Shown: positions 1-43,475, counted from the first letter of the stretch. The stretch: DNA of 48,512 nucleotides from Candidatus Magasanikiibacteriota bacterium (GCA_031973355.1 DALYDF010000001.1:20341-68852), one strand, 5' to 3'. Numbers and translations: made by a program. The notes: generated by a model from the letters alone, not told the origin.

Positions 1-3000
1 CCAAGAAATCTTTTTTACCATTACCACAATAACCGGCTTCAGCCAAACCCGTACAGCCGGTCGAGTTTTCAGTTGGAGCATTACAGTGTCCATAAGTACC
101 ATTGAGGGCACCGTCATCGCAGGCCTCAGCCCCCTCAACGATACCATTTCCACATTGACCGACTGTCCCACAAGAACCATAACTCCAATTACATTGCGCA
201 GTACAGGTACGCGTCGCCTTTTGACCTGACATACATTGTACATCACCTACTGGTATAGCTTTACACGAATCAGGCCCTCTCACTTCTTTGGTTAACCGTG
301 TGTCAATTAAACATTTAACATTTTTCTTTTGATCAGCGGTAAGTTCATTGATAATTTTTTTAAAATCTTTCAGATCAATAAAATCATTATTATCCAAATC
401 CCAGTTTATGGTTGATTTTGATTCTGAATAATCTAACATGCTAATACGTACCGCAGTTGACCACTGTTCGTAGGTTTTAGGATCTAGACAATCAGCGTCG
501 TTTTGACAACTAAACACCGCAAATTCTTTATTTGAGGGTTGTCCCACCAACACACTAGGAATAGCAACGGACGAGGCACTTACATTACCACAAAACCTAC
601 CAGCAGTTAAACTGTGTAAGCGAAGATTTGGTTCATTTTTCACTTCAGTCAGTGGTTTATCATTATAGTACCCACACCGTGTGGCATCACTGTTACAATC
701 ACGAGGTGTTAACCAATTTGCACACTGTCTTTTTACTACGGTAGAGACCGAATAACCCACCTGTTCAACTGCTCCTGGCGGCTCACAGGCTTCACCATTA
801 TTAATAATTCCGTCACCACACTGACTTTTAAATGGATTATAGGCTACCCCCACACACCATCGCTCTGAACTGAACCGCTCTAAATTAATTTGTTTTTTAA
901 CAATATCATCTTGAGTAGTAAAATATTCAAACGGCGCGTGGAACTTATACGATTGTGTGGATGAAACAAATTCGTACTCGTATACACTGGCAAATCGTGG
1001 GCAATAATACGTAGTACTACTGGCACTCCAACAGGTTTCTTTATCTTCCGCATCACAACTAGTCCAGCGATTAAGCGGATCATTAGCTAAACCAGCCCCA
1101 ACCATAGTTTGTAAAGCCCCCCACGACTGCGCCCACCGCGATACCGTATATCCAGGCGCAAATGAGCCACTGGCCAATGAACCTTTGAAGTCAAAATTAT
1201 TTTTATTTTGGGCAAAATACCCATCAAGTAAATCTTGCGCTGTACTGACATCACTAACCCGTTTCCAATCACGTTGGAATTTAGTACGGGCATTTGAGCA
1301 GGTTCCGTTTGTACCTGGCAATTCTATACCATCGGCCGTACGACAATCAAAATCAGTTTGACAGCTTGATACGGTTACGGTTGATAAATAATTTGGGTTG
1401 GTTCTAATATTTCCAGCTGGAGTAACGCCATTACCACTAGCCAAACAATACCCATGGTCAGTGACATTAGTATTAAATTCCAAGGCCGCTAATATTTTTT
1501 CAAATACCTGGCGAGTTTCCGCCGCTGCGTTTGGATTAATACTAAACAAATAAACATTATTATATACAATATCATCATCAAAAGTAGCGGTTTCTCCACC
1601 GGTTACATTTAAGGCTTGAACATAGTAATTATTTCCATCAGTTAAAGCAGGGTACCCACCCACACTCGCTAATTTCATACTTCCTAATGAACCAAATTTT
1701 TTCGTATACCATTCTTGTAGTACACCTGAACTTTCAAAAATCTGCACCCCAATTACATCATCATTTTTGGGATTAAAGAACACACCTTTCTTGAGTAAGT
1801 CATTTGCTCCGGCAATACTATTTAACGAAGACAAGCTACCTTTTAAAACTGGCAAATCATCGGTCTTATCCCCTGGTTTTCCAGCATCAGCACAATAGCC
1901 GGTAGAAAAATTAAATTGATTATCTTTATATGGATATTGGGCGGCTTCTGGCCACGGATTATCACAATAAAAAGCGGTTAAATCAAATGTATCACTAAAG
2001 ACTAAATCTTTTTGGTTTTTTTCTAGACTACTATCTTCAATTACTTTGGCCTGAGCAATAGCCGTAATTTTTCCTGGTGCATTTTTGGAAATTACTTTCA
2101 AACGTTCAGCGGGATCGGTGGTCGCACCAGTAGTTTGTGGTTCAAAGGTAAAGACTGGGTTATTTGCGGGTACCCACGACCATGTCCACCGATATCCAAT
2201 CGTTGGCACAATATATTGATTCTTTTTAGTGGCAGCCACAGCTTGAAAAATGGTTGAGGTAGCTGGGGCTTGGAACAAATAACTATCCGGACTCACTTTA
2301 ACTGAATCAATTTTACAAATATCAGGTGCAGTTTTGAAAAACCAAACATCATTGCGATTAGCAGTATCAAACGCTTTGAGTGGTACACCACGAGTACTGA
2401 CAATTCCTCCCAATTGGGCAATGCCGTAAGTATCAGTAAATGGATAGGTGTTTGGAATAACAAATTTATTAAGAATTGCATTATCACCAATTAACATTAC
2501 TCCATACACAGCGGTCGGTTCCAATGGTTCACTAATACTAATTGAAGCAATTGTTTTTTTATTATTTTGCTGTGTGATAACCCGCGTTTTAACATCAGTA
2601 GCGATTGGTACCGTACACCAGGTTTTAAGCGCCGTAAATTCAGAACTATTTTTAACACTCGTGGCAATGGTTTCCGTGCCGAATAAATTACGCACCCACA
2701 TCAGTATTGATTGCCATAAACGAGCCCAGAAACCAGGTTTTTGTTGCAGAGCAAACGCTGAGACACTTTCATTTACCAACGGGGTAACGTTGTAACCGTT
2801 AACGGTTTTACAATCAAAATTTGCTTGACCAAAACCGCGTACAAAAAATACATTACCTTTGACTGAATCAGACCGAACCTCTTGGTTAAAGGTAACCTCT
2901 ACAAAAGTATTTCGACAGACTCCTTCGGTTTGACCAAAACCTGCCCCATCTTCAGGATACGCAGTTTCACGTTTTGGACGAGCTAAACAGCAAGATTGAG

Positions 3001-6000
3001 CATCAACTCCCAAGGTATTATCATTATTATTAGGACAATCATTATAGACTGGCACATCTTGCCATTTACTAAAACCAGTTCCTGGCATTGGAATATATTT
3101 TTTCTCGGTGTAAAATTCATTCAATTCACTATATCCACATTGTAAACGATAATCCGCTGTGCTGCTCACTACTTTATTTTCAGTGGTTACTGAAGCTTTG
3201 ATTGTAGTTTGTTGATAATCAGTATTGGCTACTAGAGCTCCCTCACCTACTGCTTCCACAATTTGGGTTGGACCAGAATTAGCACCCGTGGCTACTGGTA
3301 ATTCACAAGCCGGATTTTCCCCAGTCCCCTGTGTACCATCGCCACACACCGATGGTGCTGAATAGGAAGTTTTAGAACCCAATAACGTACATTTTGCGCT
3401 ACACCCTGCGGTACCTGCCTGACAGGGTTTTATATTATCCGGTAAACCACAAGCATTGATGAATAAACACTTATCACTACACTGGCTAGCCGCAACACCA
3501 CCAACCCCAACTTCACAATCTTCGTTGGCTTCCAATTCACCATTACCACACACACTAACGCTGTTCAAACAGCTGAGCGTTGTACCAAATTGCGCTTTAT
3601 TTTTTTGACACCAATAACTAGCCGTTGGTGAACCAGTCAATAAACATTGTTCTGTACAGCCAGCTTTAGTAGCCGGATCCTCACGATCACAACTTTCTCG
3701 ATCAGGCGTAACAATTCCATCACCACAAGTACCAACTGCTCCAGTACCCCCTTGTTTTGAACCGCGGAACAAACAAGTACTGGTACAATATGGGTTATCA
3801 GTTTTAACCGCATTATTTTGATTTCCCGGGTCACATTGTTCACCAGCTTTTGCTTCTACCTGTCCATTACCACACACATTTGCTCCGGCATTAGTAGCGC
3901 TAAAGGCTTTACTATTACCCGGACGCAGACACGACAAAGTACAGGTTCCTGACACACCATCAACACTAATCACTTCATCAGTCATTTTAATATCACAATC
4001 TTCACCGAGATCTTTTACTCCGTTTCCACACAATGGGCCAGCAGCTGACACTGAACCGGCCGCAAAAGTACTTCCCTTTTTTACACACGCATTCGTACAA
4101 TAATTAGGAATATTTGAATACGCGGCTGATTTTAAATTAGTGATTTTGGCGACACTACTATTAGCCACGCTCCAGGTGTAGGAATATCCCCATTTATTTA
4201 ACGCTTGACCAATTTTACTACACACATTTGGCGCACTATAGGGCACAACGGTAAACTTGTGTTGTTCACCAATTTCTTTAGCTAAGGCACTAATTGGCAC
4301 CACGCTCAATGAACTAACACTACATGGTTTACCATCATTTTTTGTTTTAAAAATCCATTCAAATGGTTGGAGGGATTTACCACGTACCACTGGATTTTGG
4401 CGCAACAAGGCTTTAATTGGTTCACCTGTACCAGGACCATTTAGTGACACCTTATAAAAAGTATTTGGCTCTAAATTTTTCGCACTTTCAGTAATTTGCA
4501 CGCGCATTGAAAGTAAATTTGAACCCACTTCGTCGATCGCAAATTTAGAAGTAACATCAATAGGATTTTCACAAAATTGGGAATCACATAAAAATACTTT
4601 TAATCCAGCCGCATACGTGCTTGGATCCATTTGACGATTAAAATCAGCGCGGATACTAGCGTTCACACAGGATTCCGCACAATTTGGTTCATAATAAGTA
4701 ACTACCGGATCAGCTAACTCCACATACAAGGTACTGGTTGGCGCAAACTTAACTGTACCTTGAAATTTTTCACCTTGAACCTTAAATTCTGGCAAGTCAT
4801 TACGGTAAATAAATTCATAAAACGTTGGACCGTTACTGTTGGCTGGCTGTGTTTCAAATACCAAAGAAGCTGGTGTATTTGGATTGGGAATAAGAATATT
4901 GTTTGCTGAAACTTCAGAAACCGGAGTAGTTAAGTTTACCCAAGTTAACTTACTGGTATTTTTATCCCAATATAAAGCGACATCGTATATTCCTTCATTG
5001 GTAGCTACTGGATAAAAACACACTTGTTTTCCCAGACTACCACTTGGTGGCACAAATGTTTTGAAACACATTTGACCACTGGTAAAAGTAATTCGATACC
5101 CGCCCTTAGTATTATTATTAGGTACCAAATTTGACACTAAGGTGTTATATGGGAACGGATCAGATTGAGCAAATTTAAGTCGTAAAGTAAATGAAGATTG
5201 CAATGAAAGTGGTGTAGTTAGTGAACTAGGTAATTCAATTCTCTGTTTTGGTGTATAACCGTTACTTGGCACAGTAATCCCGGCAACACTAAATACATTT
5301 AAACCAGTAATTTCAGCATAACTTGATATGGCATTATTAATAGTCGCTTCAGCTTTAATTGTTACCGACGGATTAGTTTGCGAACGCGCCGCCACCACTG
5401 CCCGACTATTTAAATATGGCAAACTACTGCTAGAGGCTTGTTTAGTAATTTTATGGGCAGTAGCAAATTCACTACCTGCTCCGGTTAACGTTGGTGACCA
5501 GGCCCAGGGATATTTATCAGCGTTAATTACTGAACATTCTTGATTACCCTTACCCCACAAATAGTAGAACACCGGTCGATCAGGTAATAATTCTGGTGGA
5601 TTTTGAGTTGGTAAAAATAAATCAGTGGAATCAAACGGAAAACTTGGATCTTGGATAATACCCACTTGACGCGCTGTATATTCCGGCGGGTTAATTCCAG
5701 CATCTACTAAAGTACATTGAGTACTGTCAGTTCTAAATGAAAAACAATATGCCGTACCAGTGCCACATGGTCGAGTAGCTAACAATGGCGCCGTCACTTC
5801 AATTTGTTTACCTAAAACATTAGTAAGTTTAATTGACTTAATGGTGGTAGCTAATTCAACCTGGTACCAAGTACTTACGGCTAACGCTGGTGGTTCCTGA
5901 CGAATAATTAATGTTTTACCACTATTTTGATATTCTAAAGTCAAAGATTGCGGTTCTTTTCTTGTCGTACAATCAATTTGACCACTGGCATTGGTAGCAC

Positions 6001-9000
6001 ATGCAAATAATTTTACTGAATTTGCCGTTAATGTTCCTGGTTGAATATCAGTGGTAAACCGAACTGCCACCGTACTGTTAACACACGCACTCGTATTAAC
6101 AAACGGAGTTCCTTTTACACGTGGTGTTGGTGATGGAAATGTGGTGGAATTACATTCTTCTACCACACTTGGTGCATTCGCAATAACACCAGTAGTAAAC
6201 CGCCACAAATAACCAGCCTCACGCGGTTCACCCATACAAGCCAAGCTATTTGGTTTCCACGTACCGGCTTCGGCACCTTTGTCACAACAGTGGTACCCAG
6301 GCAAAGTAGTTTTACTCCCGATACAACTATCAACCGTATAATTAACACTGTTACTTATTAAATCTGGGGTTGGACCAGTCACTTTAATTGGCCCTGAAGA
6401 CATTGAGGTCCCATCGGCCGCTACTGGCAAACGGGTCACTAAGTGATTTTTACTTAATTCAGTAACCAGTGCTCCAGCGGTATTATCATTTCCATAACCA
6501 TTTTTTTTCTCAGCACTGAGCCAGGTACTTAATTGTAATGGATCAGAATTTTTGCGCCAAAAATGCACTTTAGTTTGGGCATAAAAATTTGCCCCATACA
6601 CAATTAAACCGATACTACTATTTGGTAGTGGAGCCGGACCATGATTTGGTGAAATTTTACAAATACTTGGTCGTGGCGAACCAGGCACAATTTCAATAAA
6701 TTCTTGACCACTGGTTTGACTCGTATCAGTCACTACCGCTATATGTAATTTTTTAACCTGCCCCGCAGAAACTGCAAAATATTCATCGCCAGGAATGGCG
6801 GCAATTACCTGATTCGCACTCCACGTATTACCACACTGATTAGGAAAATCAGTGACACTTAATTGTTTACAACTAGAGTCAGGATTCTTACTGCCACAAG
6901 TAGCCGCTGCGCCAGGACCGCTCGCTACATATACAAAACCAGGAAACGAACCGAACCCACTTCCTTTAATCGTAATATAACTACCGACCGTAGTAGACGG
7001 TGGATCAATCGCTGTAATTTGTGGTAAAGATACTTTAACATCTGGATTTAAGACTTGAAATTGCACACCATTACTTATTTCACCACCTACCAAAGCATGC
7101 ACAGCTACATACCCAGCCTTAAAATTAGCTGGCACCCGAACATTAACAGCTAATTCTGTCCAAAATTTTTCTACAATTTCTGCAATTACCCCACCAGTCA
7201 AAGTATTATTCGTGGTATTTTTTGTAGCTCCAAAAGTAATTTTACTATCAGTATTTACCGTTCCCAATCCACTACCTTTAACAGTTACTCCTACTCCTGG
7301 AATAGCCGCGCCTTCACCTTCGCGTAACACGACTTTTTCACCTCCTAACGTTACTTCGGTATCAGCGGTCACCCCCACACTACATAAACCCGGACGTTTT
7401 ATTGTATTTACAGTAAATAAACCATCGCCACCTGGCAAACCACCTAACTCATTAATCGTGGTATCAAATTTATTATTACTGGTGGTTACCTTAATTACTG
7501 CTTTTTTACCCACCGCAATGTCAGGTACGGCCACAATAATCCAAAATTGTCGCCATGATTGTCCATTACCACAATTTACAATGGTCGCTGGAGTCCATTC
7601 ATTATTTTCGTAATCACCATTATTATTGGCATCAATTCCAAAGGCTACGGTACCAGCGGCATTACCAAAACTTTTACCAGTAATCGTAATCCAGTTACCC
7701 ACTGCCCCATCCATTCGATCTACATCAGTAATCACTGGTGCAGGGGCACACACTTTATTAACACACTGAAATCCCGTTGCACAATCACTGTCCACTTCAC
7801 ACTGATCGCCATCGCCACCAGAACAAGAACCACCTGAATCAACTCCAGTCTCATCACCATCTAAAATATTATTATCACAGTGTCCTGACTGGACTTTAAA
7901 AGCGGCACTCACTGTCTGAGTATTACCATCAATATCATTTCCTACCACGGTTACCGTATAATTTTGTCCAACTTCAAATCGATTATCCAATTTGGTGGTG
8001 TAGCTAAAATCAAAAGGTACTGAAGAACCATCCTGTGCTAATGGCGCAGTATATGAAGTAAGTATGGCTGAACTTCCACTTTTAGCCACTGAAATTTTTA
8101 CTAACCCATTTCCCCCGTATTTTTGAAGAGAGCGGTCATTGAGTGTTCCAGCGATCACCAAATTAGTATTCTGAGCAAAGGTTAATCCATTACCACTTTT
8201 ATTATTTAAGGTAATTGGACTAAAGACAGGGGCCGTTGTATCGGTCTGATCCTTTTCAACAATAAATGAAACACTGTTCGTATATTTTTTACCTCCACTT
8301 TTATGTTCAGTTTTTAATTTTTGATTTAATGAATCAACCAAGTCAGCTGACACTGTTACCGTATATGGATCAGAGCTACTAATTCTAAATGGGGAAACTG
8401 AGCCATTATTTAAATAATTAACTTCCAACACTCGATTATTTTCTACCAATGAAACCTTTACGGGTAAAGGACCGGCTCCATCTTTTCTTTGAACACTCAC
8501 GGCTTTGCTCACGTCGCTATCACCTTTGACCGGACGACTTAATAATACCCGGACCGTGATATTATCCATCCCCGTAGTTATGATGTCTTTATCCTGAGAA
8601 TACGAACCAGGCGTAATTGCTTTAACATAAAATTCTCGATCCTGACAAATATCATATTCTGGGTGCGCTGCACAAGTAGCGTCACACGCTTCTTTATTAT
8701 AATTTTCTGGTTCACACGCACCAGGACTGTTATCTGAATCCCCAAGTACACTCGTGTTACCACCGATAATTGCATCACCTAACTGCTTAAAGACAAACAA
8801 TACAATTGCCCAGGCAGACAATATAATTACCAAACCAATCGTCGCATTGATAATATATTTTTTACCTTCAGCAATCTTATCTTCACTGCCACCTGAGGTC
8901 ATGTACAAGAAACCACCGTACAAAATTAAGGCGACCGTAATTAAACCCAAAACACCAAGGGCAATATTAATAAATCGCGCGGCGATTTCACGAATATCAC

Positions 9001-9136
9001 CACTTCCTAAACCAATCGTATTATTTATTGGATTGATCCCAAACGTGTCAGTTTGGGCGAACGCCGCTTGTGCACCAAAAAACACCAACCCAGCCATGAT
9101 GAGGCCAGTTAAAAGTAGTGTGGTGCGTTTAAACAT
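1..9136 (-). CDS. Giant cell-surface protein; N-terminus in window, C-terminus beyond the left edge (>3045 codons). Signal peptide + T4SS-pilin-like (VirB2/TrbC-type) two-helix membrane module, IPT/Ig-like repeats, Cys-rich 'CGxG..E.CD' repeats, dockerin/EF-hand-like loop
   Basis: The ATG is 'cat' at 9134-9136, 5 nt after the stop (9142) of the upstream 751-aa gene. Hand translation of the minus strand from 9136 to 1 met no stop. The ORF track has no minus ORF in this frame: the six short minus ORFs here all end at coordinates = 0 mod 3, and this frame is 1 mod 3. That is expected when the stop lies outside the window. N-terminus: MFKRTTLLLTGLIMAGLVFFGAQAAFAQ...ALILYGGFLYMTSGGSEDKIAEGKKYIINATIGLVIILSAWAIV. 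Repeats include PVITDVDRMDGAVGNWITITGKSFG (IPT-like) and CGNGVKDLGEDCD / CGNGQVEAKAGEQCD / CGDGIVTPDRESCD / CGNGELEANEDCE. Confidence 0.85.
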   Translation of the reverse strand, partial: MFKRTTLLLTGLIMAGLVFFGAQAAFAQTDTFGINPINNTIGLGSGDIREIAARFINIALGVLGLITVALILYGGFLYMTSGGSEDKIAEGKKYIINATIGLVIILSAWAIVLFVFKQLGDAIIGGNTSVLGDSDNSPGACEPENYNKEACDATCAAHPEYDICQDREFYVKAITPGSYSQDKDIITTGMDNITVRVLLSRPVKGDSDVSKAVSVQRKDGAGPLPVKVSLVENNRVLEVNYLNNGSVSPFRISSSDPYTVTVSADLVDSLNQKLKTEHKSGGKKYTNSVSFIVEKDQTDTTAPVFSPITLNNKSGNGLTFAQNTNLVIAGTLNDRSLQKYGGNGLVKISVAKSGSSAILTSYTAPLAQDGSSVPFDFSYTTKLDNRFEVGQNYTVTVVGNDIDGNTQTVSAAFKVQSGHCDNNILDGDETGVDSGGSCSGGDGDQCEVDSDCATGFQCVNKVCAPAPVITDVDRMDGAVGNWITITGKSFGNAAGTVAFGIDANNNGDYENNEWTPATIVNCGNGQSWRQFWIIVAVPDIAVGKKAVIKVTTSNNKFDTTINELGGLPGGDGLFTVNTIKRPGLCSVGVTADTEVTLGGEKVVLREGEGAAIPGVGVTVKGSGLGTVNTDSKITFGATKNTTNNTLTGGVIAEIVEKFWTELAVNVRVPANFKAGYVAVHALVGGEISNGVQFQVLNPDVKVSLPQITAIDPPSTTVGSYITIKGSGFGSFPGFVYVASGPGAAATCGSKNPDSSCKQLSVTDFPNQCGNTWSANQVIAAIPGDEYFAVSAGQVKKLHIAVVTDTSQTSGQEFIEIVPGSPRPSICKISPNHGPAPLPNSSIGLIVYGANFYAQTKVHFWRKNSDPLQLSTWLSAEKKNGYGNDNTAGALVTELSKNHLVTRLPVAADGTSMSSGPIKVTGPTPDLISNSVNYTVDSCIGSKTTLPGYHCCDKGAEAGTWKPNSLACMGEPREAGYLWRFTTGVIANAPSVVEECNSTTFPSPTPRVKGTPFVNTSACVNSTVAVRFTTDIQPGTLTANSVKLFACATNASGQIDCTTRKEPQSLTLEYQNSGKTLIIRQEPPALAVSTWYQVELATTIKSIKLTNVLGKQIEVTAPLLATRPCGTGTAYCFSFRTDSTQCTLVDAGINPPEYTARQVGIIQDPSFPFDSTDLFLPTQNPPELLPDRPVFYYLWGKGNQECSVINADKYPWAWSPTLTGAGSEFATAHKITKQASSSSLPYLNSRAVVAARSQTNPSVTIKAEATINNAISSYAEITGLNVFSVAGITVPSNGYTPKQRIELPSSLTTPLSLQSSFTLRLKFAQSDPFPYNTLVSNLVPNNNTKGGYRITFTSGQMCFKTFVPPSGSLGKQVCFYPVATNEGIYDVALYWDKNTSKLTWVNLTTPVSEVSANNILIPNPNTPASLVFETQPANSNGPTFYEFIYRNDLPEFKVQGEKFQGTVKFAPTSTLYVELADPVVTYYEPNCAESCVNASIRADFNRQMDPSTYAAGLKVFLCDSQFCENPIDVTSKFAIDEVGSNLLSMRVQITESAKNLEPNTFYKVSLNGPGTGEPIKALLRQNPVVRGKSLQPFEWIFKTKNDGKPCSVSSLSVVPISALAKEIGEQHKFTVVPYSAPNVCSKIGQALNKWGYSYTWSVANSSVAKITNLKSAAYSNIPNYCTNACVKKGSTFAAGSVSAAGPLCGNGVKDLGEDCDIKMTDEVISVDGVSGTCTLSCLRPGNSKAFSATNAGANVCGNGQVEAKAGEQCDPGNQNNAVKTDNPYCTSTCLFRGSKQGGTGAVGTCGDGIVTPDRESCDREDPATKAGCTEQCLLTGSPTASYWCQKNKAQFGTTLSCLNSVSVCGNGELEANEDCEVGVGGVAASQCSDKCLFINACGLPDNIKPCQAGTAGCSAKCTLLGSKTSYSAPSVCGDGTQGTGENPACELPVATGANSGPTQIVEAVGEGALVANTDYQQTTIKASVTTENKVVSSTADYRLQCGYSELNEFYTEKKYIPMPGTGFSKWQDVPVYNDCPNNNDNTLGVDAQSCCLARPKRETAYPEDGAGFGQTEGVCRNTFVEVTFNQEVRSDSVKGNVFFVRGFGQANFDCKTVNGYNVTPLVNESVSAFALQQKPGFWARLWQSILMWVRNLFGTETIATSVKNSSEFTALKTWCTVPIATDVKTRVITQQNNKKTIASISISEPLEPTAVYGVMLIGDNAILNKFVIPNTYPFTDTYGIAQLGGIVSTRGVPLKAFDTANRNDVWFFKTAPDICKIDSVKVSPDSYLFQAPATSTIFQAVAATKKNQYIVPTIGYRWTWSWVPANNPVFTFEPQTTGATTDPAERLKVISKNAPGKITAIAQAKVIEDSSLEKNQKDLVFSDTFDLTAFYCDNPWPEAAQYPYKDNQFNFSTGYCADAGKPGDKTDDLPVLKGSLSSLNSIAGANDLLKKGVFFNPKNDDVIGVQIFESSGVLQEWYTKKFGSLGSMKLASVGGYPALTDGNNYYVQALNVTGGETATFDDDIVYNNVYLFSINPNAAAETRQVFEKILAALEFNTNVTDHGYCLASGNGVTPAGNIRTNPNYLSTVTVSSCQTDFDCRTADGIELPGTNGTCSNARTKFQRDWKRVSDVSTAQDLLDGYFAQNKNNFDFKGSLASGSFAPGYTVSRWAQSWGALQTMVGAGLANDPLNRWTSCDAEDKETCWSASSTTYYCPRFASVYEYEFVSSTQSYKFHAPFEYFTTQDDIVKKQINLERFSSERWCVGVAYNPFKSQCGDGIINNGEACEPPGAVEQVGYSVSTVVKRQCANWLTPRDCNSDATRCGYYNDKPLTEVKNEPNLRLHSLTAGRFCGNVSASSVAIPSVLVGQPSNKEFAVFSCQNDADCLDPKTYEQWSTAVRISMLDYSESKSTINWDLDNNDFIDLKDFKKIINELTADQKKNVKCLIDTRLTKEVRGPDSCKAIPVGDVQCMSGQKATRTCTAQCNWSYGSCGTVGQCGNGIVEGAEACDDGALNGTYGHCNAPTENSTGCTGLAEAGYCGNGKKDFL

Positions 9137-9141
9137 AAATA

Positions 9142-11397
9142 CTATTGATCTGATTGCAGGGCCGATGGACTTGCCTCTTTAACTTTTTGAAGGCAGGTTT
9201 TTAAATTTGGTTGTAAAGTATTTGGTTGTAAGCCAAATACACAACCAGTATCAGTGTCCGCATCGGCGGTAACCTTAACACAATTTTTATTAATTTCATC
9301 ACTACCATTTACACTATCAGTAAATTCGCACTTCAGATTTGGGTTATTTACTCCTGGTTCATTTACTGGACCACGACCCGGATACATACAATTTTGGTTG
9401 TCGCCTTTAACTGAACTGGAGACAAAGGTAAAATAATATAAATCTAACCCACCTGGACCAAATTCTCGCGGGTGCTGAATTTGCGCAAAAGTAGTTTTAT
9501 TTTCTGGAATTTCTCCCATTTGGAAATAATACGGAAAATCTTCCAATGGAACTTTATCTGCCCCTAATACATTTTGTGGATATTCAATAATTCCGGCACT
9601 GTTTGGAATGGTATTATACCACATTGCCTTACTGAAATAAATCTCCACAACTTCATTTCCTTTGACCCCTTCTGCCTCTACGTTAGGCTTAACTTGAGTG
9701 ATGTACGGAATCTCCCGGTCAATTTCATTTTTAACTTTAAAATTCCACAAATAATTGTCTGGATTGCTTTCTAATGGACCAATGGTTTTAATACTACCCG
9801 CAGGCAGTGGTGGTTTGTGAATCCAGGCCGAACCAGCCTCTCCACCTTTAGCCAAAACTCCATCTGCTTGATTATTTGGACCATTATCCAAGGCATTATC
9901 CGCCATATCCATTACCCCAGTATTTGGTTGAGACACAAAATTATTATCAGCGGGATTTTGTAAAAAGGCGGTCCGTACTAAGGTTGAGTAATTTTCCGTA
10001 CACACCGTATCGGTTGGTGCACAGGTGGTTGGCAAACAATACATTTTTTCACCACAACTATTTTGCCCACACTCTTCACTCGGCACAAATTCTATGGTGC
10101 GGTACCCATTAGAAATTCGCCATTCACCGGTAATATTTGGGTTATTGAAAATAATATTACTAAAATTACTGGCTGGTCCAGACACCCCTTGGGTGACCGA
10201 CGGATCAACCGGCTCATTAAAAGTAATTTGGATAATTTTATTACGCGCCATCACTTCACCTGCTTGTGGACGAGTAGACACAACTGACGGCGGAGTAAGA
10301 TCGACAGTGGTGCTGGCTTCAAAATTCCAACTATAAAATTTACTAATAAATTGTTGAGGGAAAATATCTGTACCGTCTAACCGTTTAATCCCGAAGGTAT
10401 TTTGGGTGCCACCCATTAATTTAACGGTGTACCAGGTATTAGCAGAATCACTACCTAAATATTGTAATGGTTTAAAGGTAAACACCGTGGCTTTTTTCTC
10501 GGCGTCATACACCGCAATCGCGGCGGCAGTAGACAATGTTTTTTGGGTACTCGTTGCCTGACTTTTTGGGAAAATTTGAATAGTATCAGTTCGTAACAAA
10601 TCACATTCAGTTTCTAAATTAAGACCTGGTGTACCATCAAAATCTAAACAATCACCATAGTACGGTAATGGCTGCCCATTGGTTGGACCGCTCGTAGACA
10701 AGGCACACACCTCACCAACATTAGTGTCAGGAATTCGCACTGGTATAGAACTACCATCTTTGGGCCAGCAAGTTTTATTAGTATTACTAATTAAACTACT
10801 TGGTAATATTGGCTCAGCAAACGTAACGGCGATTTTAGTATTACGAGCCACATTTACCTGGTTTGGGCGCGGATAGTGATCTTTAATTACTGACCCTAAA
10901 CCACCACTACCGATGTATGAAGCAAAAAATGGTTGTGGACCACCGTCATTTTGTCCATTATTTCCTTGGCCACCAAAAACATCATTAAGTGATTTGAAAA
11001 TAAATTGCACAATTGCAAAGGTGGACATAATAATTACCAGGCCCACCACGGCATTGGTTAACACTTTTTTTCCTTGTAATACCTTTTCTTCATTACCGGC
11101 CGAAGTCATGATCAAAAAACCACCATACAAAACTAAACCAAAAGCAATAATTCCCAACAAACCTAAGATAACGTTAATAATTCGGCCAGCCACGGTCCGA
11201 ATATCATCATTACCTAAAATAATCGTATCTTGAATTGGCTGAAGACCTAAAACATCTTGATTATCAGCTTGCGCGAGCACAGATACTGGGTTTAAAACCA
11301 GTGTAAAAAAAACAAAAATCATTGCCATTAATTTGACAACGATTTTTTCGTGAATTTTCTTAGCCAGAATCCGAGGAAGCATGAACCCGGGACTCAA
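9142..11397 (-). CDS. Large secreted/membrane-anchored protein (751 aa) with T4SS-pilin-like N-terminal module and Ig-like (SbsA/Big_5-type) domains
   Basis: ORF track. The hydrophobic N-terminus and the segment IINVILGLLGIIAFGLVLYGGFLIMTSAGNEEKVLQGKKVLTNAVVGLVIIMSTFAIVQF are paralogous to the N-terminus of the downstream giant ORF. Motifs 'VTFAEPILPSS' and 'ITFNEPVDPS' are typical of Big_5-like Ig domains. The start codon is uncertain (M1/M6/M24/M26). Confidence 0.8.
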   Translation of the reverse strand: MSPGFMLPRILAKKIHEKIVVKLMAMIFVFFTLVLNPVSVLAQADNQDVLGLQPIQDTIILGNDDIRTVAGRIINVILGLLGIIAFGLVLYGGFLIMTSAGNEEKVLQGKKVLTNAVVGLVIIMSTFAIVQFIFKSLNDVFGGQGNNGQNDGGPQPFFASYIGSGGLGSVIKDHYPRPNQVNVARNTKIAVTFAEPILPSSLISNTNKTCWPKDGSSIPVRIPDTNVGEVCALSTSGPTNGQPLPYYGDCLDFDGTPGLNLETECDLLRTDTIQIFPKSQATSTQKTLSTAAAIAVYDAEKKATVFTFKPLQYLGSDSANTWYTVKLMGGTQNTFGIKRLDGTDIFPQQFISKFYSWNFEASTTVDLTPPSVVSTRPQAGEVMARNKIIQITFNEPVDPSVTQGVSGPASNFSNIIFNNPNITGEWRISNGYRTIEFVPSEECGQNSCGEKMYCLPTTCAPTDTVCTENYSTLVRTAFLQNPADNNFVSQPNTGVMDMADNALDNGPNNQADGVLAKGGEAGSAWIHKPPLPAGSIKTIGPLESNPDNYLWNFKVKNEIDREIPYITQVKPNVEAEGVKGNEVVEIYFSKAMWYNTIPNSAGIIEYPQNVLGADKVPLEDFPYYFQMGEIPENKTTFAQIQHPREFGPGGLDLYYFTFVSSSVKGDNQNCMYPGRGPVNEPGVNNPNLKCEFTDSVNGSDEINKNCVKVTADADTDTGCVFGLQPNTLQPNLKTCLQKVKEASPSALQSDQ

Positions 11398-11414: not shown

Positions 11415-11861
11415 TTATGCGGCGATCTGTTTTAAGATTGCTGCGCGCACACGGTTGCCATCGGCCCGACCTTTGACCCGGTTCATTACCGCGCCAGTGG
11501 CCTTGCCGCTTTCCTTTTCAGTAAGTGCTCCCAATCCCGCTAGAACTTCAGCTACGACATTAGCCAGTTCAGCGTCACTTAACTGTTCAGGTAAAAAGCT
11601 TTGTAGCAATTTTATTTCGGTATTGGTTTTTTCAACTAAATCAACTCGAGCGGCCTTAGTAAAATCTACTAACGCATCGCTCAATTGTTTTACTTGTTTA
11701 GCAATTACAGTTTCCACTTCACTGTCAGTTAACACACTACCGCGATTAATCTCATCGTTTTTAATCGCTGAGAGCACTCCTTGAAGTGAATCAAGGGTAG
11801 TACTATCATGATTTTTACGAGCAGTTTCTCGGGCGGTTTTTAACGCAGTAAGTAATTCCAT
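11415..11861 (-). CDS. GatB/YqeY domain-containing protein
   Basis: ORF track (153 aa). Length and pattern are YqeY-like (ALKARE-type helix, VIAKQVKQ, GKATGAVM). The ATG at 11861 lies 1 nt after the rpsU stop. The ORF-track start at 11876 would overlap rpsU by 14 nt. Confidence 0.7.
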   Translation of the reverse strand: MELLTALKTARETARKNHDSTTLDSLQGVLSAIKNDEINRGSVLTDSEVETVIAKQVKQLSDALVDFTKAARVDLVEKTNTEIKLLQSFLPEQLSDAELANVVAEVLAGLGALTEKESGKATGAVMNRVKGRADGNRVRAAILKQIAA

Positions 11862-11862
11862 A

Positions 11863-12114
11863 TTATTTGGCAGCACGACGGTAAGCTTCTAAATCTTTTT
11901 TAGACATTTTACCAGTGTTTTTCAAATATTCCATTCTTCCTTTTTTCTCTAAGCGAGCCAAAGCTGATTGCCGACGAACGCGTTTAGTGCGTTTACCAGT
12001 AAATACTTGGCCTTTGCGAACTTCAAGAATCCGGCCTGAATCCTGCCAACTTTTTTTAGTACGGCGGAGAAAAGCGTCAAAAGATTCACCTTTTTTTCTT
12101 AATGTTTGTGACAC
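11863..12114 (-). CDS. rpsU: 30S ribosomal protein S21
   Basis: ORF-track frame. S21-like core GESFDAFLRRTKKSWQDSGRILEVRKGQVFTGKRTKRVRR. The GTG at 12114 is preceded by GGGAGGTG (SD) at proper spacing. The upstream part of the tracked ORF overlaps the promoter. Confidence 0.75.
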   Translation of the reverse strand: MSQTLRKKGESFDAFLRRTKKSWQDSGRILEVRKGQVFTGKRTKRVRRQSALARLEKKGRMEYLKNTGKMSKKDLEAYRRAAK

Positions 12115-12151
12115 AATGTTCACCTCCCGGTGACTTAAAAATAATACCCTA

Positions 12152-12180
12152 ATCTTAGCCGAAAAAACCACTTCTGTCAA
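12152..12180 (-). promoter_or_regulatory. sigma70-type promoter for rpsU operon
   Basis: Minus strand: TTGACA (12180-12175), 17 nt, TAAGAT (12157-12152), directly after the hisS stop. Confidence 0.55.
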
Positions 12181-12181
12181 A

Positions 12182-13576
12182 TTAGACAGCCAAGATCTTT
12201 AAAATAGCCGTTTTAAGCTTTTTTTGGTCCACAATTTCTTGGTTACCTGACTCCATATTGCGAATCAAAACCGTCCCATCCAAGACTTCTTTTTGACCCA
12301 AAATTAAAGTATGGGTTGTGTTATATTTATTAGCCAATTCCATTTGATTTTTCAAGGATGATTTGGCTAAATTATGTCGTACCACAATGCCATTTTGACG
12401 CAATTCTTCAATTAATTTTAGCGTTCGACGACGAGCCTGTTCACCTAACTGAGCAAAGAAAATAACCGGCTTACCATCATTTTTTACTTCTAATTTTTGT
12501 TCGTGTCGTTCTACTGCCGCAAATATTCGTTCCATACCCAAGGCAAACCCAGCGGCTGGCGTTGGTTGACCACCTAACTGTTCGATTAACAAATCATACC
12601 GACCGCCACCACCTAGAGCACTTTGGGCAGTTTCAGTGGTTGAATCTTCGTAAAATTCAAACACGGTGTGGGTGTAATAATCTAAACCACGCACCAAGGT
12701 TGGAGTTAATACATACGGAATTCCCAATTCATCCAAATACTCAAGCACACTCATAAAGAAAGCTTTGGAAGTGTCAGCCAACCAATCCACGATTTGCGGA
12801 GCTTCAGCGACCACACCCGCGCAACTTTCTACCTTACAATCTAAAATCCGTAACGGATTTTTAAGTAAGCGTTTCTTACAATCTTCACACAAATAGGCTC
12901 GTTTGCCGCGGAAATATCCAACTAATTCCACTAAATATTGTTCACGGTCTTGTGGTGTACCGAGTGAATTAATCCGCACGGTTACTTCCAATCCCAAATC
13001 GCGTAAAAAATTATACCCAACCGCAATTAATTCGGCGTCGATAACCGGAGCTGTTTCACCAATGGTTTCACAATCAAATTGGTGAAACTCACGATACCGA
13101 CCAGCTTGTGGACGATCATATCGAAATGCTGGACCAATACTCCACATTTTTACTGGCTGTGGTTGGTTATGCAACCCATGCATAATAAAAGCGCGGGCTA
13201 CTGAAGCCGTCATTTCTGGACGCAAACACAGTTTTCCACCATCACGGTCTTCAAACACATACATTTCTTTATCTACTACGTCTGTTCCCTTTCCCACTGC
13301 GCGTACGAACAAACTAGCCATTTCTACTACTGGTGTTTCAAAAAAATGAAAATCATACGCAGTCGCAATATCAGTAGCTTTACGCACCATTTTTAACCAC
13401 AAATCTCCTTGTGGTGGCAAAGTATCTTTCATGCCACGCACCAAGGCCAACTGACTGGCCAGTTTTTTATTTGTTTCTTCAGTGGCTACAACTTTTTTAA
13501 CCACAGCTGGTTTTACTTCCTTTGCTACTGGCTTACTGGCTGGAGCTTTTTTTTTAACTTCTTTTTTTGTAGACAT
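12182..13576 (-). CDS. hisS: Histidine--tRNA ligase with ~40-aa Lys-rich N-terminal extension
   Basis: Class II HisRS motifs: LRPEMTASVARA, FRYDRPQAGRYREFHQFDCE, GGGGRYD, GFALGMERI. The likely ATG at 13576 (MSTKKEVKKK...) is 10 nt after the lepB stop. The tracked ORF start at 13717 lies inside lepB. Confidence 0.9.
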   Translation of the reverse strand: MSTKKEVKKKAPASKPVAKEVKPAVVKKVVATEETNKKLASQLALVRGMKDTLPPQGDLWLKMVRKATDIATAYDFHFFETPVVEMASLFVRAVGKGTDVVDKEMYVFEDRDGGKLCLRPEMTASVARAFIMHGLHNQPQPVKMWSIGPAFRYDRPQAGRYREFHQFDCETIGETAPVIDAELIAVGYNFLRDLGLEVTVRINSLGTPQDREQYLVELVGYFRGKRAYLCEDCKKRLLKNPLRILDCKVESCAGVVAEAPQIVDWLADTSKAFFMSVLEYLDELGIPYVLTPTLVRGLDYYTHTVFEFYEDSTTETAQSALGGGGRYDLLIEQLGGQPTPAAGFALGMERIFAAVERHEQKLEVKNDGKPVIFFAQLGEQARRRTLKLIEELRQNGIVVRHNLAKSSLKNQMELANKYNTTHTLILGQKEVLDGTVLIRNMESGNQEIVDQKKLKTAILKILAV

Positions 13577-13586
13577 AATTAACAAA

Positions 13587-14195
13587 TTAATAGGTTGGAG
13601 AATTAAAGGTACCAATTCGGGAAATAGGCCAGCCACGTAACCAGACTCGACCAACCATATCGGCTCGATCGATCGCACCAAACCGACGCGAATCAAAACT
13701 AGCATCGCGATTATCACCCATCACAAAATATTGATTTTGCCCCAAAGTAATGGTTACCGTTCCTGGTGTTTCTTCTGTCAAATAAATTTCTGATAAAATC
13801 ATTCCTTGTGGGTTCGCTTCGTTATACACCACCACTTTATTACCATCTACTTTAATGCGTTCACCCGGTAACCCAATAATTCTTTTAAGAAAATAATCAT
13901 CAGTAGCACGATAATGGAAAACCACTACTTCCCCCCGCTGCGGCACACGAAACCGATAGGATAATTCATCAATAATCAAATAATCTCGTTCTTCAAAATT
14001 TGGCTCCATTGATTGACCTTTTACATAAAAAGGTTTAAATAGAAAATAACGAACCAAACCAATGGTAATTCCGGCTAATATGGCAATCTTAATTAATTCC
14101 AGCAAAAAACTGCCAGCTCGACTAATAAAACTAGCCCGATGCTCGGTTTGTACATTATCTAAAAGCTGATCAACCTCGGTTTCTTGGTTGTCCAT
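13587..14195 (-). CDS. lepB: Signal peptidase I
   Basis: ORF track. It has a TM helix plus the catalytic boxes GQSMEPN, KRIIGLPGE and GDNRDASFDSR. Confidence 0.9.
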   Translation of the reverse strand: MDNQETEVDQLLDNVQTEHRASFISRAGSFLLELIKIAILAGITIGLVRYFLFKPFYVKGQSMEPNFEERDYLIIDELSYRFRVPQRGEVVVFHYRATDDYFLKRIIGLPGERIKVDGNKVVVYNEANPQGMILSEIYLTEETPGTVTITLGQNQYFVMGDNRDASFDSRRFGAIDRADMVGRVWLRGWPISRIGTFNSPTY

Positions 14196-14339: not shown

Positions 14340-16919
14340 TTAACGAACCATCATTAAATCATCAATTCCTTCACTAATTGGGGTAGACCCGTAGTCAATG
14401 TCCACTTTGTAAATCAAATCTGGAGATTGGAATCCAAAATAAACAATACTCGATTCAGAAACAGTCCGTTTGGCTGTAGTTATCACTTTCCCAAAAGGGC
14501 CATACACGGTGATGTTTGCTTCTACTTTTTGACCATATAAATTTGCTGGCCCAACCAAGTAAAAGCCCATAGCCTTAACCGGAGTATTAAAGCCTAGATA
14601 CAACGGATCATTAGAACTATTTTTTGGAGAAGTAGCATTATTACTAATGGAATAAGCACCAGACGAAGTTTTGGCACCACCACGATTATAATCATTTACA
14701 TAAATCGCTTTACCGTTGTTTGACCAAATTGTTACTCCGTACAAAGAAACATATTTAGTAATCACTTCACCAACAGTATCTTCAAAATCAACTGTCTTAG
14801 GTTGTAATGCTTTAAGATCAGTGAGGGAAATTTCACCTGTTGTGGTGATTGTTGGGTTTGGTGGCGTTACTACTATTGGAGCTTTGAACAAAAAGTAACG
14901 ATAATCTGACCATGCGCCTTTCACATATTCATTTGTCGCGCTATCAAGGAAAACAGGGCGAGCGCGCAAACGATATGATTTACCATCAGCAAAAGGTCCG
15001 ATCGTGGTATTTACATAGCCATTTTCACTTTGGGATAAATTTATCTGACTCGTATTACTCCAATTCCCAGCTTGGCAATCAAAACAATCTACTGTTAATT
15101 CATAATGTTTTGAATTTGGAACTGTGGTAAATTTAACCGATACCGTTGTTTCATTATTTACAAACACCTGATTAGCACTTGGCATCACCACGCTTGGCGC
15201 TGTGCTTAAGTAGGGGTTTACAGTTGCCTTAGCTGGAATCTTGATGTGAATCGCAATTACATCATCAACTTCCACAGGCATATTCGGCACGCGTGAAACA
15301 CCATCATTGTTTCGCACATAAGCCAAGACAGTTACATACTTACCACGATAATAATCCGTTACGTTAAACGTAGCACCATTACTAAAAGCAGAGAAACTAA
15401 GATTTGAAACTAAATTTTTAGCCAAATTTTCATCAAAATTACTGGAACCTGTATTGGAATTTACCCAAATATAACCATACGTGTAATTTGCTGAAGGAGC
15501 CTTAACTGAACGATTAACCCGCAAGGTGAATTGATTGATACCACTTGGAATATCAATTAGTTGTTTAGCGGCATAACCTTTTAAGCGCAGGTATCCTGAA
15601 TTGGCATATCCAAGCAATTCATTATTTGTGTTATACAAACTGAGCGTATCAATAATATGAGAACTATCAGGAACCACCGTGGTATTTTTACCTGGCACAT
15701 ACACACGCATAACCGCAATATCATCAACTTCAGTAGCCATGCCTGGTACCGATGAAATACCATCATTATTACGCACAAAAGCGTACACCATCAACCAACG
15801 ATCTCCGCTATCACCATACAATTCATCAGTAATATCATATCGAGTCGCTTGAGGAGAACTACTGAAAGTTAAATTAGAGGTAATTTCACTAGTAAGTGCC
15901 TTATTAAATTCTGGTTTTTCTTTCTTCATGTCGACAGCAAAAGAATAGGAAAAATTTCCTGAACTTTTTGTGGTTATTGCATAACGCAAACCACTTTGAC
16001 CTTTTGGCAAAGCCACTTCATCTGGATACCATGGAAAAGATCCATCAGATCCATAACTAATGTCAGTTTTAGCATTTACATTTCCTGTTTGAGGGTTAGA
16101 AACACTAAACAATGAAATCAAATCAGTTCCAGAAACACCAGGCGTGATTGGATTAACTGGAGACACAGGAGCAACGGGCACCTCAGGCACGGCACCTACA
16201 CCACCTAATTGGGTTGGATCAGCCAAAATTTCTGCTACAGTAGTAGTCTCAGTACTAAGTGGTACATTTTCCAGCATAGACTGTCTAATACCCTGCACAT
16301 CTTTATTCAAAAAAGTAGGTATAGAACCAAGAACTTTTTTCAACTTACCCTCAGATACGAAATACACTTGAGGATTATCTTCAATAACAACTAACTGTCC
16401 ATTAACTGATTTAATATTTTCAACATCTGAACCAATTTTTAAATTAGAATCAAAGGCATCAGATAATAAACGAATTTTAGTTGGCCAATTATTTCCAAAT
16501 AAAACTACAGCAGTACTTTCATTTGTAATACGGTGTTTAGTATTATTTGGACCAACCGCATAAACTGTTGGAGAAACAGCTGTTTTAACTAATCGTGAAC
16601 CTGGTCGATAATTTACGCCACCACCAGTTGGATATTCATCCACACAAATCGGATCAATAGTAACAATTCCAGAATAATCACTATACCAAGTACTATATAC
16701 TTCACTATTAGGAAAATACATTCGTTTGTGATCTTTGTTGACGATATACACCGCCGGGTAATTCGCAACCTTAAAACGAGTACCGGCACTTAATTCTGCA
16801 CAATTAGTGGCCTGAACTAAAGATGGTACCCAAACCGACAAACTCAAACTAGACACCAATACCCCTCCCACAGTGACTGCAGAAAAAAATTGACGAGTTT
16901 TTTTAAAAAAAACACTCAT
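14340..16919 (-). CDS. Secreted hypothetical protein (859 aa) with internally duplicated beta-rich module
   Basis: ORF track. Signal peptide: MSVFFKKTRQFFSAVTVGGVLVSSLSLSVWVPSLVQA. Two paralogous segments: YAFVRNNDGISSVPGMATEVDDIAVMRVYVPGK and AYVRNNDGVSRVPNMPVEVDDVIAIHIKIPAK. Confidence 0.8.
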   Translation of the reverse strand: MSVFFKKTRQFFSAVTVGGVLVSSLSLSVWVPSLVQATNCAELSAGTRFKVANYPAVYIVNKDHKRMYFPNSEVYSTWYSDYSGIVTIDPICVDEYPTGGGVNYRPGSRLVKTAVSPTVYAVGPNNTKHRITNESTAVVLFGNNWPTKIRLLSDAFDSNLKIGSDVENIKSVNGQLVVIEDNPQVYFVSEGKLKKVLGSIPTFLNKDVQGIRQSMLENVPLSTETTTVAEILADPTQLGGVGAVPEVPVAPVSPVNPITPGVSGTDLISLFSVSNPQTGNVNAKTDISYGSDGSFPWYPDEVALPKGQSGLRYAITTKSSGNFSYSFAVDMKKEKPEFNKALTSEITSNLTFSSSPQATRYDITDELYGDSGDRWLMVYAFVRNNDGISSVPGMATEVDDIAVMRVYVPGKNTTVVPDSSHIIDTLSLYNTNNELLGYANSGYLRLKGYAAKQLIDIPSGINQFTLRVNRSVKAPSANYTYGYIWVNSNTGSSNFDENLAKNLVSNLSFSAFSNGATFNVTDYYRGKYVTVLAYVRNNDGVSRVPNMPVEVDDVIAIHIKIPAKATVNPYLSTAPSVVMPSANQVFVNNETTVSVKFTTVPNSKHYELTVDCFDCQAGNWSNTSQINLSQSENGYVNTTIGPFADGKSYRLRARPVFLDSATNEYVKGAWSDYRYFLFKAPIVVTPPNPTITTTGEISLTDLKALQPKTVDFEDTVGEVITKYVSLYGVTIWSNNGKAIYVNDYNRGGAKTSSGAYSISNNATSPKNSSNDPLYLGFNTPVKAMGFYLVGPANLYGQKVEANITVYGPFGKVITTAKRTVSESSIVYFGFQSPDLIYKVDIDYGSTPISEGIDDLMMVR

Positions 16920-43423: not shown

Positions 43424-43446
43424 GGCCTGAAAATTAGATTGTTGGC

Positions 43447-43475
43447 AGTATACCAAAAAAGAGCCGTAGGCTCAA
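43447..43475 (-). promoter_or_regulatory. Extended -10 promoter for the TSP3-protein/giant-gene pair, embedded in the rsmA terminator
   Basis: Minus strand: TTGAGC (43475-43470), 17 nt ending in TGg, TATACT (43452-43447). Confidence 0.55.

Follow-up and report, generated by a model that had tools for sequence, protein, structure and literature searches.

Two adjoining genes headed by pilin hairpins

We analysed a 48,512-nucleotide stretch of DNA (DALYDF010000001.1:20341-68852), the whole of which is hereafter called the window, from an uncultured, ultra-small member of Candidatus Magasanikbacteria (Patescibacteria, class ABY1). Two genes, M and the giant G, adjoin on its minus strand, and each encodes a large protein that opens with a signal peptide and a membrane hairpin of the type IV secretion system (T4SS) pilin family. 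The original prediction of two adjacent large genes with N-terminal hairpins was borne out, and the peptides that it quoted are exact translations. Every window feature given below with coordinates lies on the minus strand.

Gene M (9142..11382) encodes 746 amino acids (aa), in which a signal peptide and a T4SS_pilin hairpin are joined by a flexible linker to an Ig-like (Big_5) ectodomain, as assigned from the Pfam families PF18895 and PF13205 and from an AlphaFold2 model (predicted local distance difference test, pLDDT, 89.3; predicted template modelling score 0.80). The mechanically called open reading frame (ORF) spans 9142-11397, with a TTG start at 11397 and 751 codons; the public database form (P0016) is the 746-aa protein starting at the ATG at 11382. 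Its signal peptide (aa 1-39, 11266..11382) has a K-rich n-region, a hydrophobic core and the end A-Q-A, and would be cut after A39. The A-Q is kept across the family, hydropathy marks a segment at 10-40, and AlphaFold2 places a helix at 8-29 followed by a disordered stretch. The pilin module (aa 43-137, 10972..11256) consists of a pre-helix segment, a helix at 61-92, the loop SAGNE and a helix at 98-136. The ectodomain (aa 150-746, 9145..10935) is a beta-rich array of tandem Ig-like domains with 10 invariant cysteines.

Between the stop codon of M (9142-9144) and the ATG of G (9136) there are only 5 nt (9137..9141), exactly the spacing that had been predicted and one that would fit co-transcription or translational coupling. 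The gap is 3 nt at the related locus L001 and 66-117 nt at L002 and L003. A scan for promoters and terminators around the pair gave matches no better than those in shuffled sequence.

Gene G (1..9136) starts at the ATG at 9136 and stays open to base 1, its left end lying outside the window, and so has at least 3045 codons here. Full-length orthologues are 3.3-5.3 thousand aa (kaa) long; two of them, P0273 (3762 aa) and P0143 (3693 aa), are colinear with 85-100% of the window part of G. From sequence and orthologue hydropathy, aa 1-27 (9056..9136) form a signal peptide with the end A-F-A, probably cut before Q28. The pilin module (aa 30-125, 8762..9049) has helices at ~48-79 and ~85-124 around the loop SGGSE. 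The ectodomain (aa 126 to at least 3045, 2..8761) contains Big_5 and TIG Ig-like domains and repeated cysteine-rich CG[DN]G...C[DE] units, and no hydrophobic segment beyond the pilin module was found in the window part of it.

The N-termini of M and G share 57 of 114 residues (50%) by BLASTP (E 6e-36), with gaps confined to the linker after helix 2, which agrees with the ungapped core alignment of the original prediction. Their Smith-Waterman score is 283; sequences shuffled in full score 32.5 +/- 5.9 (z=42.7), and those shuffled only within the pre-helix segment, first transmembrane helix (TM1), loop and second transmembrane helix (TM2) score 42.6 +/- 9.5 (z=25.3). The likeness thus survives both forms of the shuffling check that had been proposed for it. 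Generic transmembrane composition as its cause is ruled out by these shuffles and by the composition-adjusted statistics of BLAST. Because z reaches 25.3 even against layout-preserving shuffles, we interpret the likeness of the two modules as homology.

Both modules pass the gathering cut-off (26.6 bits) of PF18895, the T4SS_pilin family to which they had been provisionally assigned, with 43.8 bits for the N-terminus of G and 39.1 bits for that of M (39.1 and 34.8 bits on whole proteins). A six-frame hidden Markov model (HMM) search of the window found just these two copies and no third pilin module. Moreover, NF045849 of NCBIfam, a model of pilin-like proteins of mycoplasma integrative and conjugative elements (ICE), is matched over all 80 of its positions by M (32.8 bits, E 4e-8) and G (31.9 bits, E 8e-8), both scores being under the curated equivalog cut-off of 40. 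Judged by these matches the domain is homologous to that family, but the proteins are not equivalogs. The Mycoplasma ICE protein Mbov_0395 shares with M and G the pilin-like hairpin, there in a monoderm conjugation system, and unlike them it is small. No type IV pilin family was found among the Pfam and NCBIfam matches of M and G, whose leaders are Sec-type with an AQA or AFA end. The polar loops, SGGSEDK in G and SAGNEEK in M, both read G-x-E-x-K, and the layout foreseen for the module, a signal peptide, a helix, a short polar loop with this motif and a second helix, is supported by AlphaFold2 and hydropathy.

AlphaFold2 was run on the module with 16 relatives and on full-length M with 116 orthologues. 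The module gave two long helices (19-50 and 56-95) around the five-residue loop SGGSE at a pLDDT of ~90, so the helical hairpin expected at the N-terminus was predicted with confidence. In full-length M the signal-peptide helix (8-29) and disordered stretch precede the hairpin (61-92/98-136), which a floppy linker (138-148, pLDDT <50) joins to a compact, beta-rich ectodomain (150-746, pLDDT >90). Foldseek matched this ectodomain to the BIg domains of LdtMt2, the surface layer (S-layer) protein SbsC and protocadherins (E 3e-6 to 1e-3), with low TM-scores, as multi-domain rods would give. Hydropathy of full-length giants shows three hydrophobic segments, all N-terminal, namely the signal peptide, TM1 and TM2; no C-terminal anchor was found by this means, and P0273 carries 138 cysteines. 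By hydropathy and AlphaFold2 the hairpin is therefore the sole hydrophobic anchor of M and G. We infer an N-out/C-out topology with the lysine-rich loop in the cytoplasm, in which case everything past helix 2 would be extracellular.

Conservation and concerted evolution of the two hairpins

In a scan of one genome per species, a relative of M turned up in at least 571 genomes, which belong to Magasanikbacteria and their kin (class ABY1). In ~70 of the 79 best loci, M is directly followed by a same-strand ORF headed by a second pilin module; these ORFs in the position of G are open to the end of the fetched DNA and exceed 2,400 aa.

Within the M family the hairpin core (aa 76-125) tops the conservation profile at 3.2-3.35 bits per column, with 62-69% identity to the window protein; the rest of the protein lies at 1.2-3.0 bits, save one ectodomain window (aa 426-450) at 3.25 bits. 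For the G family the profile covers the first 1300 aa; the module reaches 3.07 and 2.70 bits and the 1,200 residues that follow it 0.8-2.4 bits, the low-complexity linker (aa 129-168) among them being poorly conserved at 0.85 bits. The conservation of the hairpin includes the polar loop and invariant G, M, T and N positions. A pattern of this kind would not be expected of a passive anchor.

Across 75 genomes, M and G modules of the same genome are 0.563 identical, compared with 0.456 for M and G, 0.457 for M and M and 0.486 for G and G of different genomes. In 73 of the 75 a module resembles its own partner more than it does foreign partners on average, and no alignment column separates M modules from G modules. 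Moreover, M-G identity across genomes climbs from 0.46 to 0.59 with relatedness, approaching the within-genome value, a rise that an ancient duplication followed by independent evolution would not give. We computed the within-genome excess for the extracellular pre-helix segment, TM1 and the loop (TM2 was left out) and found it in all three alike. Since the pre-helix segment and the loop show it too, compositional bias of the transmembrane helices is not its cause. These two results, a hairpin that is the most conserved part of both families and a pair of hairpins that evolve in concert, fit the suggestion that the module is a dedicated one for surface giants.

The same codon is used at 0.462 of aligned identical residues and at 0.376 of non-aligned ones, an excess present in 65 of the 75 genomes (Wilcoxon p=4e-12). 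It is because of this shared-codon excess that we attribute the homogenisation of the two anchors to recurrent gene conversion. A sharply bounded M-G tract occurs at L071 (~270 nt, 83-97% nucleotide identity), and another of ~120 nt at 87-97% nucleotide identity is found at L082. The pair in the window is 63-70% identical at the DNA level and has no recent conversion tract. At three Uhrbacteria-like loci, L050 (8938), L057 (8893) and L076 (8794), a stand-alone pilin gene of 125-142 aa lies between M and G.

Conversion tracts and shared codons are the marks of a DNA-level process, and they would be expected also if the pilin-derived hairpins were passive anchors, M and G were independent, and the likeness of their modules came from neutral gene conversion of adjacent repeats. 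The lack of class-diagnostic residues between M and G modules is in line with this account, as is the loss of the concerted signal where a gene intervenes, which proximity-dependent conversion predicts. However, passive transmembrane anchors usually rank among the least conserved parts of a protein, and here the hairpin is the most conserved over hundreds of genomes; the strict adjacency and order of M and G likewise points to a functional couple. We consider passive anchoring with neutral conversion quite unlikely, and favour instead an additional, specific function of the hairpin, which is set out in the last section.

Relatives, genomic setting and the possible link to conjugative pilins

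A word-index search with the module alone returned 15 small, stand-alone pilins (89-165 aa, 30-59% identity) and missed the fusions, for which an exhaustive profile search was needed. That search matched 43,757 representative proteins (clusters at 50% identity) at E<=1e-3. The best 150 of these comprise 34 giants (2.0-5.3 kaa, module at residues ~35-130), 35 proteins of 600-999 aa, 2 of 1,000-1,999 aa, 16 single-module proteins of 200-599 aa, 12 stand-alone proteins of <200 aa and 51 proteins with 2-8 tandem modules. All 34 giants are colinear homologues of the window's G, mostly over 85-100% of its 3045 residues. The survey of related genomes that had been suggested with the original prediction thus found the same module fused to giant ORFs in many of them.

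M has 290 full-length homologues, its orthologues being 660-770 aa long and mostly from Candidatus Magasanikbacteria. Of the top 120, nearly all measure 628-769 aa (a partial sequence has 549 aa and another protein 1078 aa), and PF18895 together with Big_5 is present in every one except a single protein. Their source names include 'pilin', 'Ig-like domain-containing protein' and, given by NCBI to P0128 at least, 'Mbov_0395 family pilin-like conjugal transfer protein'. The homologues of G number 113, measure 1.9-4.8 kaa and come from Magasanik-, Uhr-, Komeili- and Falkowbacteria. PF18895 is present in 109 of the 113, alongside mixes of Big_5, TIG, LamG, VWA, DUF4215 cysteine-rich repeats, FG-GAP and fn3, which by domain content is a typical adhesin repertoire.

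The tandem proteins, which lie outside the window, are P0136 (606 aa), P0137-P0141 and ~45 others, each with 2-8 T4SS_pilin hairpins. In P0136 seven in-frame hairpins, amounting to a predicted 14 transmembrane helices, come after a single N-terminal signal peptide. A stop-codon read-through artefact was rejected on the strength of that single signal peptide and the seven in-frame hairpins, and P0136 looks like a real covalent 'poly-pilin'. We found no description of such tandem proteins in the literature. An unfused association of pilins with giants occurs on another Patescibacteria contig (L083, 7994-20399), where seven small T4SS_pilin genes come directly before genes for three large surface proteins, whose lengths are 1058 aa, 1278 aa and at least 2847 aa and among which Ig-like or cadherin-like matches occur; no VirB4 gene was found within 10 kb of this array. 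Many loci of the Patescibacteria type (L006, L009, L012, L015, L016, L020, L024 and others) come from records titled 'uncultured Gammaproteobacteria bacterium', and L045 from one titled 'Candidatus Udaeobacter sp.'. These titles of pair-bearing metagenome-assembled genomes are probably taxonomic mislabels.

Upstream of M lie lepB (signal peptidase I, S26), hisS, an rpsU-like gene and yqeY (11415..14195, minus strand, assigned by Pfam), and the order and strand of these genes are kept in 65-73 of 82 related loci. On the 3' side of a complete giant follow a gene for a TSP3-repeat protein, two unknown genes, ybeY, dgkA, ftsA and ftsZ. Because it is embedded between lepB-hisS-rpsU-yqeY and ybeY-dgkA-ftsA-ftsZ, the M-G pair is, judged by synteny, a core, vertically inherited cassette outside any T4SS locus or mobile element. 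The remainder of the window is housekeeping in character (SMC, ScpAB, ParAB, AspRS, RelA, KsgA, NusB, RNase III). The upstream genes are given as context and imply no functional link to M-G. As lepB stands three genes upstream of M in 69 of the 82 loci and pilin-type precursors are substrates of signal peptidase I, its linkage could be meaningful, though it is inseparable from plain operon conservation.

The window holds other large or exported proteins. A second giant ORF (34150-42741, minus strand, 2863 aa) carries a hydrophobic segment at its N-terminus but neither a pilin module nor a match to a Pfam or NCBIfam family. It is directly preceded by a gene for a 237-aa membrane protein with TSP3 (calcium-binding) repeats (42743-43456, minus strand). 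At L085 a TSP3-repeat protein (19327-20250) comes directly after a pilin-anchored giant, and such proteins may regularly accompany the giants of this lineage. Between lepB and khpA (14340-16919, minus strand) lies a gene for an 859-aa secreted protein with a signal peptide, for which we found no pilin module and no Pfam or NCBIfam match; its position is kept in 1 of the 82 loci.

The original prediction had also labelled the module as VirB2/TrbC-type, and this closer kinship was not shown. PF04956 did not match the window modules at E<=1, although some relatives of M and G match it as well. The module family profile found no match among PDB sequences. Aligned by hhalign with Agrobacterium VirB2, whose sequence was verified against PDB entry 8cue, the module falls in register at a weak probability of just 3.7%. 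Foldseek searches of the PDB with the hairpin returned only unspecific helical hairpins at E >1 (best 1.4), the two-helix fold being too simple for such tools. Agrobacterium VirB2, RP4 TrbC and F TraA (PF04956; pili 8cue, 8exh) resemble M and G in having a signal-peptidase-I-type leader, a mature N-terminus that starts at the Q following A-x-A, and a short basic loop between two hydrophobic helices. These classical pilins are encoded in T4SS operons as small proteins that stand alone, and M and G differ on all three counts. Such conjugative pilin subunits measure ~70-150 aa, and here the module is fused to 0.6 kaa in M and at least 2.9 kaa in G. On sequence grounds, then, the module belongs in PF18895, yet the proteins lack two hallmarks of conjugative pilins, small stand-alone size and T4SS linkage.

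Nearer at hand are the small VirB2-like pilins of Patescibacteria, which have been discussed as putative pilus subunits (PMC10633639, PMC12102498, PMC12857230). In Southlakia epibionticum a stand-alone array of them in the T4SS locus is essential (PMC10633639). Quinonero-Coronel et al. 2025 (PMC12102498) surveyed such arrays across the phylum, finding pilins of ~90-165 aa, often in tandem, and located near virB4 in 1135 of the 1948 VirB4-containing assemblies having pilins. They share with M and G the Pfam family, the phylum and the signal peptide followed by two helices and a G-x-E-x-K-type loop, at 40-59% identity. In M and G, by contrast, the module is the first 3-17% of proteins of 746 aa and 3.7 kaa, encoded in a housekeeping cluster as a fixed two-gene cassette, and classical C-terminal processing or cyclisation is not possible.

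We found no T4SS gene in the 48.5-kb window, nor beside M-G in the ~7-10 kb flanks of the related loci examined, where the identified neighbours are housekeeping genes. The pair sits in a housekeeping cluster, and no link to a T4SS locus was seen; the original call to look for T4SS genes drew a blank in the window and succeeded elsewhere in related genomes. There VirB4 is listed for 7 of 7 pair-bearing Magasanikbacteria genomes that we could match to our loci (PMC12102498, Table S1). In one of these seven the VirB4/TrsD genes are distant from the VirB2-type matches (PMC12102498). For GCA_000990355.1, which is our L014, Table S3 of the same survey gives three 'VirB2' matches by the T_virB2 profile and no PF18895 entry. 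The M and G modules of L014 score 116-121 bits against our module HMM, and the fused proteins may have been missed or filtered in that survey, or un-annotated in the GenBank record.

The VirB4 genes, the T4SS_pilin membership and the significant though sub-threshold NF045849 matches all bring in the explanation that M and G are true modular conjugative-type pilins, whose hairpins a VirB4-dependent T4SS would build into a VirB2-like pilus. M and G would probably sit at the tip or base of such a pilus or serve as rare subunits, and the pilus would present giant adhesins; modular type IV pilins and FimH-type proteins, with a pilin domain joined to an adhesin domain, would have their equivalent in a T4SS. 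The stand-alone pilins at 40-59% identity among the nearest relatives of the module agree with this, and the higher conservation of the hairpin than of the ectodomain is what recognition by an assembly machine would require. The missing T4SS neighbours speak against it, as does an appendage of 3.6 kaa on a 90-aa subunit, which would be sterically awkward in a five-start helical pilus except at its end.

In solved conjugative pili both termini of the pilin face outwards, which would expose a C-terminal fusion. VirB2 and TrbC pilins are, however, processed or cyclised at the C-terminus, RP4 TrbC undergoing C-terminal trimming, and a fusion there precludes such maturation. VirB2-like pilins are essential in a cultivated Saccharibacterium (PMC10633639), and modular pilins have a precedent in type IV pili (PMC8179133); the literature searched (PMC12102498, PMC12857230) reports no pilus for any Patescibacteria T4SS. 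On balance we regard T4SS-built modular pilins as possible, though unlikely.

A putative surface-display cassette

The reading that we favour, at about even confidence, is that M and G are Sec-exported surface proteins with adhesive ectodomains, anchored by a pilin hairpin that adds a specific function of its own. Both would be exported by Sec, with signal peptidase I removing the signal peptides, as the AxA-type sites suggest, and the mature proteins would stay in the cytoplasmic membrane through a single VirB2-like T4SS_pilin hairpin. A short N-terminus would lie outside, helix 1 would run inwards, the K-rich loop would be cytoplasmic and helix 2 would return outwards. The Ig-like, Cys-rich ectodomain (0.6 kaa in M, ~3.6 kaa in G) and the flexible G/N/S-rich linker before it would then stand out from the cell and serve as an adhesin or a scaffold of the envelope, the probable purpose being to touch a host cell. 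The hairpins of M and G may pack laterally together, possibly with free pilins, or share one docking partner; such packing, which is probably the specific interaction, would re-use the side-by-side packing of conjugative pilins. Recurrent gene conversion or co-evolution keeps the two hairpins alike.

We infer this additional function from the extreme conservation of the hairpin, the fixed adjacency of the two genes, their concerted evolution and the natural concatemers in which one signal peptide precedes 2-8 hairpins, the last of which suggest that hairpins tolerate a side-by-side arrangement. Several points weigh against it. At L050, L057 and L076 the two modules are no more alike within a genome than between genomes. 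Gene conversion of adjacent similar sequences can be neutral, and concerted evolution is thus no proof of interaction, while recognition by a T4SS would explain the strong conservation of the hairpin equally well. Surface location and topology are drawn from sequence and models, and hairpin-hairpin contact and an M-G complex from argument.

The linker allows a further scenario, in which M and G are precursors, a protease cuts the disordered segment and the hairpin is a transient export carrier, so that the giant ectodomain would be released to a surface layer or the medium, or a mature small pilin would be freed. The linker is indeed low in complexity and varies much, being disordered by pLDDT in M (aa 138-148) and weakly conserved in G (aa 129-168), RP4 TrbC offers a precedent for C-terminal trimming, and SbsC, an S-layer protein, is among the structural matches of the M ectodomain. 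No conserved cleavage motif is visible in the linker, though, and no dedicated protease gene is linked, lepB being a general signal peptidase whose synteny is shared with hisS and rpsU. The scenario is inferential throughout, and we judge it highly improbable.

Surface proteins that stay anchored by their hairpins, as we prefer to see M and G, have analogues elsewhere. Modular type IV pilins, for instance CofB or the PilB and PilC of Streptococcus sanguinis (Raynaud et al. 2021, PMC8179133), are also reported as common in Candidate Phyla Radiation lineages (CPR; PMC8179133). Their design is like that of M and G, with a small N-terminal pilin module, a short flexible tether and adhesive modules grafted on to it (VWA, lectin, Ig-like), and by Pfam and AlphaFold2 M and G have the architecture that defines modular pilins (PMC8179133), as an analogy from another superfamily. 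Type IV pilins are unrelated: their signal peptide is of class III, PilD, the prepilin peptidase, cleaves them, and they have just one N-terminal helix, whereas M and G have a Sec signal peptide, a two-helix hairpin and ectodomains up to ten times larger.

A second analogy is the two-component, membrane-anchored surface layer of the Sulfolobales, formed by SlaA and SlaB. There too, adjacent and co-transcribed genes of the core genome specify two envelope proteins rich in Ig-like domains, one far larger than the other, with an anchor in the cell's single membrane. SlaA and SlaB have no sequence kinship to M and G, in which both partners carry an anchor, and a lattice modelled on them would lean on the weak structural match to SbsC.

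What is new here is the pilin module at the head of giant surface proteins; the small pilins of PF18895 and their arrays were known. Our literature search, which was not exhaustive and took in a survey of giant genes, found no mention of the giant-fused module, the M-G cassette or its concerted evolution; the sequence databases already hold proteins of the M and G type under loose names. In reviews, VirB2-like pilins mark the essential T4SS of Patescibacteria off from other monoderm systems and are read as a sign of conjugative pili (PMC12857230, PMC12102498). The same hairpin also stands, as a conserved module, at the N-termini of putative giant surface proteins from a core cassette of two genes, far from T4SS genes, and genome-wide 'VirB2' counts based on PF18895 probably include some proteins that are no pilus subunits. 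PF18895 was the most abundant Pfam domain in freshwater-specific structure clusters in a published survey. A second use of the family, in surface display and perhaps in the co-assembly of adhesins, may explain part of its expansion in CPR lineages.

It is doubtful, in our estimate, that the VirB2-like hairpin of M and G works as a pilin module, with the Patescibacteria T4SS, or a self-assembling lipid-hairpin stalk of M, G and free pilins, building a filament that bears megadalton adhesins; M and G would then be the first 'modular conjugative pilins'. If the working-module reading were true, the PF18895 family would be, beyond its role as subunits of conjugation pili, a general surface-display system by which ultra-small episymbionts seize their hosts. 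The concerted evolution of the two anchors is a clean evolutionary signal that points to a testable interaction, and the M-G pair provides concrete candidates for the host-attachment apparatus of an uncultured class.

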